From Candidatus Omnitrophota bacterium (lineage in GTDB: Bacteria > Omnitrophota > Omnitrophia > Omnitrophales > Aquincolibacteriaceae): a stretch of DNA of 64,000 bases. Made by a program: the position numbers. The DNA is taken from assembly GCA_023247055.1 (NCBI GenBank), contig JAHFHF010000008.1, positions 733 to 64,732 on the forward strand, given 5' to 3'. Positions 30,001-33,000 of the stretch are shown here, in pieces (the first letter of the stretch is position 1; every line of letters starts with the position of its first letter).

Positions 30001-33000
30001 TGGCAGAGCGGCAAAAAGTTTGGCCGTATCAATCACACTGCCGCCGCCGATGGCGAGAACAAGGTCAAATTTTTCCTGCCGCAGGCGTTTTAACTCCTCT
30101 TCGATAAAGGCGGCTTGAGGATTGGCAGAAACAGCCGCGGAAAAGAAAAAATCATAGGCCGCCAGCATTTCAAGCAGGCGCGGATAATGGGCCGAAGCGC
30201 GAAAAGAGCGCCCCCCCAGCACGACCAGGATGCGCTGGGGATGATACTCGGCAAGTACGGCGGAAAGGCCCGCAAAAGCGCCTTTTTCAATGTGGCAGCG
30301 GACAGGATTGGAGGAAAGCAGGCCCACGCTCAGGATTCGTCCAACGCGCTTTTAAAACGCTGGCTGATTTGTTCGGAAGAGTATTTGCTGGAAATCCGCG
30401 GAACTTTGTCCGCGGGGGTGCGGTTGATTTTAATCCGCAGTAAAACAGGGCCTGGACCGGCCAGAAAATCATTTAACGTGCGGCGCAGGCTTTTCTCATC
30501 GGCGGCTTCTTGCGCCTGCCGGTAACCGGCGGCTTTGGCGGCCAGGCAAAAATCCGTCGAGGCCGAGGTCGTGTCCTGGTTGCCGGTCGTTTCATAGGCT
30601 TCATTATCCAGAACGAGATGATAAAAATTTTTGGGTTGGTAGTGGCCGATGGCGGATAAAACGCCCAGATGCATCAAAAGTGCGCCGTCGCCGTCCAGAA
30701 TGACGACTTTTTTTTCAGGCCGGGCCAAGGCGATGCCAAGGCCGATGGCCGGTGCATGGCCCATGGATCCCTGCATATAAAAATTGCCCTTACGGTCCGC
30801 CGCACTGAAAAGTTCGCGCGAAGCCATCCCGGTCGTGGCCACGACGGCTTCATGGCCTTTTAAATTTTCCGCAATGATGCGGATTGCTTCAAGGCGTGAA
30901 AGCGGATACGCGCCCTTTTCCACGGAAACTTCATAGCTTCCCACGGTGTCTTTGCGTACAAAAAAAACACAGGGTTGATTTTTTTGTCCGATATAAACCC
31001 GGGCTTCATCCAACGCTTTCTCATAAGCGCCGGATTCCTGCGGCAAGTCGCTGAACGCAACGCCCATGGCGGAAAGCATACCGCCCATGGTCCGGCCGAT
31101 GATTTCATGCTGGGGCTCGTCGGCAACCCCGTAAGCGCGGCCGCTCACAAAAATAAGCGCGGGCAGATGGTAGATCATATTGAGCGATGTCAGCGGATTG
31201 ATCAGATTGCCCAGCCCCGAGTTTTGAATCATCACGACCGCTGGTTGTCCTGCCAAACAGGCCCCTGAAGCCAGCGCCAAGGCCGACCCTTCATTGGGCG
31301 CAATGATGTAGCGCAGGTCTTTGTCGCCGCGCACGCAGTTAATGGCGGATTGGAAGAATGAGCAGGGAACGCCTGTAAAAAACCGCCATTTGCGGGTCTT
31401 AAGCGCTTGGACAAAATCTTGGGGAGAAATCATAGGTCCGCTTTGTCATTGCGAGGAGCGCAGCGACGAAGCAATCTCAGAGATTGCTTCGCTCCCTTCG
31501 GTCGCTCGCAATGACAAAGGGAAGATGATTTGCTGCGGTTTATTCTAAGAAACGTTGGACAAATTTTCGGTGGCTTTGAAATATTGACTGACCCGGCGAT
31601 AATCTTCGAGCGAATGAATTTCCGACCAGCCGTGCTCGACTTCCATGCCGTAGATGGGCGTTCCGAGATCGATCATATACTGCAAGAGATCGGTCAGGCT
31701 GGCTTTTTCAACCGCAGAGGCCTCATAAAACGGCTTACCCTGGAATTTTTGCCGGGCTTGCTGCCAGGCCTCGCGCAGTTTTTGAAATCCGGTTTCCTGA
31801 AACAGCGCGATGCCCGCAAATTCACAGTCGGCTTTAGCGCGGTCCAGATTTTTGGCAATTTTGCGCACGGGTTTCAAGGTGTTGAGCGCCATGCGGCGGT
31901 TCTTTTCGCCCTCAGCCGGGTTTTCGGTCATAACGAGTTCCAGCGCCTTGCTGCGGGCCGGCAGCGTTTTATAAGCGCGATCAATGACCAGCGTGATGGC
32001 GTTCGGGCTTTTGAGCAGCAGACTGAGGACTTGACGGTCAAAGAGAATGTCGGAATAAGCGATCAGACATTTCCCTTTCAGGTTTTCACCCGCGCGCATG
32101 ACCGAATACGCCACATGCGTCTGGGCCCATTCCGGATTCGGAACGACGTTGATATTGTCGCCGCGGATACTCTCGCGTTTGTACCCGCCGATGACATGAA
32201 TGTCCGTTGCCCCGGCGCCGCGGAAAAGTTCGGCCTGGTGCTGCAAAAGGGTCTTCCCCGCAATTTCCAGCATGCACAACGGTTTGTCCTCCAGGAGCGT
32301 GCTGAAATCGGCATGTTTACGCGCGTCCCCGGCCGCAGGCACGATCACATGCATTTTTTCAGTTTTAAGGTATTTCGTCTCCGTATCTTTGAGCGTGCCC
32401 ATGCCCTGCAGTTCGAAGACTTCCTTCATTGAAGTGATGCGGGACTCCACTGCGGCCGTGGACCCCGTTTCATAAATGGATTTAAACGTTTCCTGCATGG
32501 CGCGGATGCTGGCGCGCAAGCCTTGATTGGCATAAATCACAATTTTAAAACCGTGCTCGGCCAATTGATCCGCCGTCACGTCATAATACATGGTGGGAAT
32601 GGCTACGAGCGGCAGTTTCCCTTTGTAACGTTTGGCAAACTCATAAATTTCATCCGGCGTATTGACTTTGGAGTGAATCACAAGGCCGTCGGCCCCGGCT
32701 TCGGTATAAGCCTGCGCGCGTTTTAAAGCTTCTTCCATGCCCCAGCCCGCAATCAAAGCCTCAATGCGGGCGATCACCATGAAATCCGCGCTGTGCTTGG
32801 CATTTTTGGCGGCTTCCAGCTTGCCGCAAAATTCCTCAATCGACGCCAAGTCCTGCCGTCCGGGAACAAAGCTGTTTACTTTTGGAAAATGCTTGTCTTC
32901 GATCACCGCGGCCGCCAGCCCCGCCGCCTCGTACTTTTTGATCATATGGATGACGTTGGCCGCATTGCCATAGCCGGTATCGCAGTCGCAAATCACCGGA

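Follow-up and report, generated by a model that had tools for sequence, protein, structure and literature searches.

What is a nested-hairpin repeat doing between two genes of a phosphonate operon? The question is raised by a 64-kb window of a Candidatus Omnitrophota genome (the window is the whole stretch of DNA analyzed, and all window-scale counts refer to it). In this window, one copy of such a repeat, copy 4, takes up most of the 111-nt spacer between the stop codon of the phosphoenolpyruvate (PEP) mutase gene pepM (31545) and the start of the phosphonopyruvate decarboxylase gene ppd (31433). Five further copies are present, one of them between the sulfate-assimilation genes cysD and cysNC (Table 1). 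The family was originally taken, in a sequence-only reading, for a set of mRNA-stabilizing or RNase-processing elements that tune expression within operons. The repeat family is real and was correctly described there, but it was wrongly interpreted. The six copies are very probably not operon mRNA signals. Instead, they are best read as gene-less, non-autonomous relatives of a cassette in which the gene of a small GIY-YIG nuclease, ssn, stands between two inverted hairpin units, and they fall within the class of the Ssn-related motifs (SRMs). In this respect they resemble miniature inverted-repeat transposable elements (MITEs) and REPINs, the hairpin-forming doublets of repetitive extragenic palindromic (REP) sequences. 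On this reading, the copies are selfish or domesticated DNA.

The Half-Unit as the Basic Module

The half-unit, and not the pair, is the basic and informative module of the family. Each window copy consists of two units of about 35–60 nt that face each other in a convergent arrangement, and each unit contains, in this order, (T/C)GTCATTGCGAG, a variable hairpin, and GAAGCAATCTC. Written from 5' to 3', the unit reads (T/C)GTC-ATTGC-GAG-(variable small hairpin)-GAA-GCAAT-C(TC). With at most one mismatch allowed, the outer arm GTCATTGCGAG was matched 12 times in the window against 1.2 expected, a number reached by none of 100 shuffles. The inner arm GAAGCAATCTC, searched with the same tolerance, was also matched 12 times against approximately 1.2 expected from shuffles, 11 of these 12 matches lying inside the six copies. 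All six copies are present where they had been placed. A relaxed search of the window recovered exactly 12 half-units, which form six convergent pairs, and no solitary half-unit; extrapolated, this density amounts to about 190 units per Mb.

When the six copies are aligned, invariance is essentially confined to the four arms, and the intervening sequence varies freely. All 12 half-units start with (C/T)GTCAT, i.e., with a non-G base before GTCAT, and all 12 carry the core C, either as GCAAT-C or as the one-mismatch variants GCGAT-C and GCCAT-C. The spacer between the convergent half-units measures 1–13 nt. In the minus half of copy 6, the inner arm has decayed to GAAGCCATC. The long nested hairpin of the original description, with an outer stem enclosing an inner one, holds for the best-preserved copies: single-strand folding gave −32.8 kcal/mol (z = −8.9) for copy 4 and −34.7 kcal/mol (z = −8.4) for copy 1, both with outer and inner stem, whereas the z-scores of the degenerate copies, from −1.5 to −4.3, make a less convincing case. 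For the GA-rich internal loop, a K-turn, a loop E and a hammerhead were considered and rejected, since their pairing registers, compared by hand, do not fit, and there was no match to an Rfam ribozyme.

Units with exact arms (GTCATTGCGAG-N(5-35)-GAAGCAATCTC) were surveyed in viral and species-representative genome collections. The 394 exact units among the matches listed have preferred middle lengths of 6 and 12 nt, and T is the commonest base at position −1. The middle of the unit is a small hairpin whose stem varies in both sequence and length and which very often ends in a C-GNA-G triloop (CGAAGC, CGCAGC, GAGCGCAGCGAC, etc.). Clusters of arm matches, again among the matches listed, comprise 180 single units, 48 convergent pairs together with 36 partly decayed ones, and some tandem arrays. 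Arrays of half-units in the same orientation, an arrangement absent from the window, were seen in Chloroflexus and Caldatribacterium contigs (L124, 1372–1508, with a period of about 50 nt; L173, 1627–2274; L160, 554–2200), and the cassette model leaves them unexplained.

Natural variants of the unit keep the complementarity of ATTGC and GCAAT within the half-unit, as in ACTGC/GCAGT, ACCGC/GCGGT, ATTCT/AGAAT, and ATCCT/AGGAT. Four clean pairs were found in which both cores of one half had changed together and those of the other half had not, with 0 mismatches within halves and 2–4 between halves. Because these compensatory changes fall inside half-units, the pairing under selection is probably the one within the half-unit. 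The four cases come from strict matching; loosely matched arms gave mostly noise in the comparison of covariation within and between halves.

A Probable Distinct Variety of the Ssn-Related Motifs

In 2025, Chenal et al. (Nat Commun, PMC11893778) reported on the Neisseria repeat NTS, CGTCATTCCCGCGMAVGCGGGAATCYRG, and gave the broader class the name "Ssn-related motifs". SRMs flank ssn genes, which encode single-domain GIY-YIG proteins (cd10448, 94 aa), in many phyla. The Neisseria enzyme SsnA binds the NTS hairpin solely as single-stranded DNA (ssDNA), in one orientation, and cuts a few nucleotides upstream of it. The critical bases are the three that precede the stem on its 5' side and the C that follows it on its 3' side, the latter being the most critical for binding, and neither RNA nor double-stranded DNA is bound or used as a substrate. 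Binding and cutting of ssDNA have been demonstrated for four homologues, from Neisseria and Wolbachia, and in N. meningitidis SsnA reduces transformation by NTS-bearing DNA. The arrangement NTS-ssnA-NTS was described as insertion sequence (IS)-like, with an explicit parallel to REPs and bacterial interspersed mosaic elements (BIMEs) and their transposases. The palindromic core of NTS is the repeat dRS3 (ATTCCC-N8-GGGAAT), which clusters in intergenic DNA around particular genes (PMC11893778 for all these statements).

Several features of this class recur in the element of the window. Its unit is a hairpin-type repeat with a defined orientation: it begins with (non-G)GTCAT, has a C after the stem and ends in AATC. 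It is present in high copy number, is almost always intergenic and is found in many phyla. Inverted repeats on both sides of a gene for a single-domain GIY-YIG protein of about 95 aa are common to both systems, and the proteins are homologous; for the present element, the association with ssn genes holds for the family, in loci selected by protein, and not within the window itself. The differences concern the core, which is ATTGC-GAG...GAA-GCAAT here and ATTCCCGCG...GCGGGAAT in NTS, and the structure, in which a stem of only 5 bp is followed by a purine-rich internal loop and then by a distal hairpin that varies, the lone unit being predicted to be weak. Furthermore, the window holds gene-less convergent pairs only. 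From dRS3 and the intergenic mosaics of Neisseria, the element also differs in sequence, in having one convergent pair per site and in its Omnitrophota host. In the Neisseria arrays, dRS3 is interleaved with RS blocks.

All in all, the element is a member of the SRM/Ssn class and a distinct variety of it in both sequence and structure. This GTCATTGCGAG class is not covered by the published search motif; the Ssn/SRM system itself has been known since 2025. Literature searches with literal DNA and RNA strings of the element returned unrelated primers only, and the literature on UPF0213/COG2827/YhbQ offered nothing useful on it.

Association with a GIY-YIG Nuclease Gene

A profile search of the open reading frames (ORFs) in the first 240 loci revealed three GIY-YIG ORFs (96–109 aa), and all three are bracketed by units in the same layout: unit, 10–13 nt, ATG...stop, 0–4 nt, inverted unit. 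One of the three uses a sibling repeat with compensated cores. A set of 80 metagenome loci was fetched by homology to the 96-aa nuclease alone, which avoids ascertainment by the DNA motif. In these protein-selected loci, an inverted unit lies within 100 nt of the stop codon in 46 of 64 genes, 29 of them with a distance of at most 7 nt and often with an overlap of the TGA. An upstream unit accompanies 35 of 68 genes, and at least one adjoining unit was found for 56 of 70.

The bracketed protein consists of a single GIY-YIG domain (PF01541, 96 aa), and the spacing of its catalytic Tyr/Tyr/Glu residues, counted by hand, agrees with Y6/Y17/E64 of SsnA. The GTCATTGCGAG-type nuclease is 43% identical (E = 5e-25) to the GIY-YIG ORFs bracketed by canonical Neisseria-type NTS, which came from a separate scan and have identical architecture. 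UPF0213 proteins are the closest solved structures (E = 1.5e-7). Neither the GTCATTGCGAG-type nor the NTS-type nuclease was matched in PADLOC. In PHROGs, a match was obtained for the NTS-type homologue alone, a weak one to a generic endonuclease, and NCBIfam has no model for the bracketed nuclease.

The spacing of convergent units is bimodal, with either 5–160 nt and no gene or 280–400 nt and a gene between them, and nothing in between. Convergence is also the preferred arrangement, accounting for 51 of 89 adjacent pairs in the genome loci. The window copies have the convergent layout with 1–13 nt in the place of the gene, and therefore show the cassette architecture minus the gene. Clustering of the ORFs within 400 nt of the elements yielded mostly structural genes of one related phage group and no recurrent transposase family.

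Two variants of the cassette deserve mention. In one sub-clade (L241, L255, L280, L281, L283, and L298), the approximately 50 nt from the upstream unit to the ATG form a conserved leader (...AACAAGCTCCGCAA(A/T)CT...TATAAT-like...), which suggests that the cassette may bring its own promoter. In another (L301, L303, L304, L308, and L320), a full convergent pair stands on either side of the GIY-YIG gene, so that cassette ends can be doublets.

Distribution in Bacteria and Phages

Units with exact arms occur in at least 120 viral stretches and at least 120 species-representative genome stretches. The GTCATTGCGAG class extends over dozens of bacterial phyla and over phage contigs, with units found singly, in pairs or in tandem. 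The genome matches listed come from Chloroflexota, Pseudomonadota, Bacteroidota, Patescibacteria, Bacillota, Planctomycetota, Omnitrophota, Atribacterota, Nitrospirota, Elusimicrobiota, and other phyla. Cultured isolates among them belong to Sporomusa, Chryseobacterium, Chloroflexus, Pedobacter, Lacinutrix, Sphingopyxis, and Litorivivens, and the metagenome-assembled genomes (MAGs) to Chloroflexota, Patescibacteria, Omnitrophota, Planctomycetota, Atribacterota, Nitrospirota, Elusimicrobiota, and many other groups. Two 11-mers conserved across phyla are not what one would expect of an operon signal or of a REP family confined to one lineage.

In a group of related phage contigs (L003 at about 7032–7110, L120 at about 5394–5480, L113, L006, L116, and L070), one or two SRM half-units are in frame with a conserved gene, between an upstream ATG and a second ribosome-binding site (RBS) plus ATG, and the 5' coding end of the gene is duplicated. 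In other phage relatives, this spot is either free of units or taken by a different cassette, and the native N-terminus of the gene contains GAAGCAATC in some members. The in-frame location at the 5' end of a gene recalls the Rickettsia palindromic elements (RPEs), short selfish palindromic repeats that can sit in frame in coding sequence. No nuclease gene is known to be associated with RPEs.

Comparison with Close Relatives

The nearest named relative of the window's CysD is encoded in an Omnitrophica MAG (87% identity), and the relatives of its Ppd are Omnitrophota as well. In relatives with 95–96% identical CysD, the element is absent from the cysD/cysNC junction, where spacers of 190–240 nt hold unrelated repeats, and no unit is present anywhere in the 20.9-kb syntenic stretch of the CysD relatives. 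It is also absent from the pepM/ppd spacers of relatives with 71% identical Ppd, one of 266 nt in L452 and one of 69 nt in L451, the latter being a putative pepM/ppd spacer with a truncated upstream gene. Absence at these orthologous junctions indicates that the copies are lineage-specific gains in junk-tolerant spacers and not conserved parts of operons.

The spacers of the relatives have repeats of their own. The cysD/cysNC spacer is occupied by other repeats in L443 (10886–11092) and L444 (3883–4124), those of L443 being about 2.5 tandem copies of an approximately 84-nt unit (GTCAATGAAATTGACGTAACTTATTTGGCCGAATTTATCCTTTTTCCGGCGAAGACGGAAATAAGGAT...). Since different repeats are found in this spacer in different relatives, it appears to collect repeats across the lineage. 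The pepM/ppd spacer of L452 is filled by a CCTCCCCGTGCTCTTCGGGGGAG...GGAGGGGGAAAAG element, which is similar to family A, a second hairpin repeat of the window that is described below.

Alternative Explanations

The first alternative is that the copies act as RNA, i.e., as hairpins in polycistronic mRNA that stabilize the transcript or serve as RNase III/E sites and thereby set the expression of pepM against ppd or of cysD against cysNC. All six copies are indeed intergenic, as had been claimed, and three of them lie between same-strand genes and would be transcribed (copy 1 between the SxtJ-like and carbamoyltransferase genes, copy 4 between pepM and ppd, and copy 6 between cysD and cysNC). 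The claim that they all separate co-transcribed genes fails for the other three, which are outside operons: copies 2 and 3 share a gap between a convergent M48 peptidase gene (+) and a small ORF plus Fe-ADH gene (−), and copy 5 lies between a NUDIX gene and a tRNA gene. For the single orientation previously assigned to the family, only copies 2, 3, and 5 give clear evidence and copies 4 and 6 give partial evidence; the copies are near-palindromic, several pairs of them aligning equally well or better when one is inverted.

A whole pair forms a very stable hairpin, and in some phage contigs a single unit stands directly 5' of an RBS and ATG, both of which would suit a function in RNA. Against it, the orientation of solitary units in other sequences is unbiased with respect to flanking genes that are co-directional (12 in the same and 14 in the opposite orientation in genomes; 36 and 29 in viral contigs). 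The copies match no Rfam family: two tRNAs are the only features of the window that reach the gathering threshold of Rfam 15, and the sole match on the element, obtained in a permissive search, is a chance microRNA (18.8 bits vs a threshold of 100). GNA-type triloops, which are frequent in the middles of the units, point to DNA as well; as in the d(GCGAAGC)-type minihairpins, such loops favor DNA hairpins. Finally, the element is missing from the cysD/cysNC and pepM/ppd junctions of close relatives, and the associated nuclease family does not bind RNA (PMC11893778). With no junction conservation, no strand bias, no Rfam match and a link to a nuclease, mRNA stabilization or processing is an unlikely reason for the presence of the copies.

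It is still less probable that they are classical MITEs, i.e., internally deleted derivatives of a DDE-type IS whose outer arms are terminal inverted repeats and which a transposase mobilizes in trans. The 11-nt outer arms do resemble terminal inverted repeats, and the element is short, intergenic and multicopy. Against this, the commonest form elsewhere is a single half-unit without an inverted partner, the flanks of the six copies show no target-site duplication, and the only gene recurrently enclosed by the arms encodes the 96-aa GIY-YIG nuclease instead of a transposase.

A REP/REPIN system of the kind known from Pseudomonas and E. coli, mobilized by a REP-associated tyrosine transposase (RAYT, a Y1 HUH transposase), follows the same logic as the present one: hairpin repeats in intergenic DNA, often as inverted doublets, a single-copy enzyme gene bracketed by its own repeats, and recognition of an ssDNA hairpin. 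The original comparison of the family to REPs, as an intergenic hairpin-forming repeat, was a fair one in this sense, and the REP/BIME parallel is also drawn by Chenal et al. (PMC11893778). The bracketed gene, however, encodes a GIY-YIG protein (PF01541) and not an HUH/Y1 transposase, and clustering of the surrounding ORFs brought up no recurrent transposase family. The unit starts with GTCAT and lacks the GTAG with which REPs start, and its arm sequences are identical across phyla, whereas REPs are lineage-specific. A true REP/RAYT system is hence scarcely credible.

Just as hard to sustain is the idea of intrinsic, possibly bidirectional, transcription terminators: strong hairpins do lie in intergenic DNA, and copies 2 and 3 between convergent genes, but no T-run follows the element hairpins on either strand, and a terminator scan reported none of them, flagging only a small internal hairpin of copy 3 (+ strand). 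All four alternatives are disfavored because each is contradicted by at least one direct test.

Proposed Mechanism and Points Against It

The reading of the copies as gene-less relatives of an Ssn cassette can be given a mechanism by homology with the Neisseria enzyme. When the DNA becomes single-stranded during replication, repair, uptake or cruciform extrusion, a unit would fold, and a cognate Ssn would bind the folded unit in one orientation and nick a few nucleotides 5' of GTCAT. Convergent units would provide each strand with one correctly oriented unit. A cognate Ssn is presumed to be encoded in this genome and to act on the copies. The pairs may derive from cassettes by gene loss or may serve as landing sites for cassettes, and the repeats would presumably spread by an ssDNA route. 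More speculatively, if both strands were nicked 5' of their units, two long 5' overhangs could result, and their fill-in would duplicate the cassette. The hairpins may have an incidental effect on polycistronic mRNAs; any influence on the pepM–ppd or cysD–cysNC transcripts would be a side effect and not the reason for the existence of the copies.

A wider proposal is more tentative and, on balance, somewhat doubtful. According to it, the gene-less pairs would be the non-autonomous partners of a mobile unit-ssn-unit cassette, and Ssn and its hairpins would constitute a pan-bacterial, phage-carried class of mobile elements driven by a GIY-YIG ssDNA nickase, analogous to RAYT/REPIN but with a different enzyme. 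The most widespread class of these elements, GTCATTGCGAG...GAAGCAATC, would be invisible to the published search motif.

Several observations weigh against the assignment to an Ssn-type cassette. There is no GIY-YIG or ssn ORF within the 64-kb window. The published SRM search string, HGTCWYN(0-2)YYVSBRHN(0-5)WNVSBRGN(0-2)RNCYNB, which is a search heuristic and not a definition (PMC11893778), matched none of the 12 window units and none of the 549 units in total, and gave 1 match in the GIY-YIG loci against 237 for the GTCATTGCGAG class. Since the same implementation found 210 matches in NTS-type loci, its failure on the GTCATTGCGAG class is real. Clean cases of covariation are few, namely the four pairs and the sibling families. 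Moreover, the predicted fold of a lone half-unit is weak (−2.7 to −4.5 kcal/mol, z of about 0) compared with the Neisseria NTS (−9 kcal/mol, z = −5.5), and within a pair two unit hairpins side by side are much less stable than the long hairpin with outer and inner stem. Taken together, the weakness of the lone unit and the stability of the long hairpin leave the substrate structure for the nuclease uncertain in the GTCATTGCGAG class. GA pairs and GNA loops may count for too little under standard energy rules. As for mobility, no exact pair of filled and empty sites was found among the phage relatives or the close relatives of the window; the intergenic slots of the phages are hypervariable, one and the same place being occupied by different cassettes, and no clean boundary can be defined. 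The six pairs of flanks show no direct repeat that could be a target-site duplication either, so that what suggests mobility is solely the patchy presence of the element.

Positions of the Copies and Other Repeats of the Window

The positions and the anatomy of the six copies are given in Table 1, together with the other repeats observed in the window. Family A, an unrelated hairpin repeat, has the form TCCCCCACCTTAATCCTCCCCCGGA..., followed by CTCCCCCCGTG-TTTTC-CGGGGGGAG-ATTAAGAGGGGGG. The neighborhood of the two families that had been pointed out is found for two of the three family A copies, which lie near SRM pairs. The degenerate heptamer tandem repeats (GTCGTGA/GTCTTGA and similar) have counterparts in the phage contigs L100 and L089, where similar heptamer arrays (TACTGAC, ATCACCC/ATTACGC) take up the variable slot that in relatives holds SRM units.

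Table 1. Repeat elements of the 64-kb window, with the half-units of each convergent pair and their surroundings.
Feature	Coordinates	Strand	Half-units and structure	Location
Copy 1	1820–1918		half-units 1820–1862 (+) and 1876–1918 (−); 13-nt central spacer	SxtJ-like gene / carbamoyltransferase gene
Copy 2	28535–28647		half-units 28535–28596 (+) and 28608–28647 (−); extra internal hairpins in left half	convergent gap after M48 peptidase gene
Copy 3	28729–28831		half-units 28729–28777 (+) and 28789–28831 (−)	same intergenic gap as copy 2
Copy 4 (focal)	31445–31515		most compact pair: GTCATTGCGAG-GAGCGCAGCGAC-GAAGCAATCTC-A-GAGATTGCTTC-GCTCCCTTCGGTCG-CTCGCAATGAC	pepM / ppd spacer
Copy 4, plus half-unit	31445–31478	+	one SRM-type unit: (T)GTC, ATTGC, GAG, variable mini-hairpin, GAA, GCAAT, C(TC)	
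Copy 4, minus half-unit	31480–31515	−	GTCATTGCGAG-CGACCGAAGGGAGC-GAAGCAATCTC, read on − strand	
Copy 5	57031–57141		half-units 57031–57089 (+) and 57101–57141 (−)	between NUDIX gene and tRNA gene
Copy 6	62483–62566		half-units 62483–62523 (+) and 62526–62566 (−)	cysD / cysNC spacer
Family A	8645–8773			
Family A	57584–57692			
Family A	63482–63608			
Heptamer tandem repeats	60414–60540		degenerate GTCGTGA/GTCTTGA and similar	HflX-like GTPase gene / cysNC spacer

The repeats also leave traces in annotation and assembly. Spurious ORFs arise from them at 28643–28951 (copy 3) and 31321–31548, as had been noted. The start of the longest cysNC ORF, a GTG at 62497, lies within copy 6; the probable true start is the ATG at 62461, which in L441, too, is the one that follows the element. 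Assemblies made independently from short reads of the same organism break off within copy 4 (L450, position 1) and copy 6 (L442, 1022–1048), which indicates that the repeats fragment metagenome assemblies.

Implications

In annotating this genome, the hairpins, which create the two spurious ORFs and the false GTG start of cysNC, are best masked as repeats, and the copies should not be taken as regulators of the phosphonate or sulfate-assimilation operons. For the family, the Ssn-associated hairpins seem to include, in the GTCATTGCGAG class, a very widespread form that nevertheless escapes the published degenerate motif. Because the motif misses this class, counts of SRM-bearing genomes and of Ssn genes with a cognate repeat may be underestimates. 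Each new pair of hairpin and nuclease is, in addition, a candidate site-specific ssDNA cutter for biotechnology. Finally, the split into gene-bearing cassettes and gene-less pairs offers a handle on the question, left open in 2025, of whether the unit-ssn-unit arrangement is mobile and how its repeats multiply.

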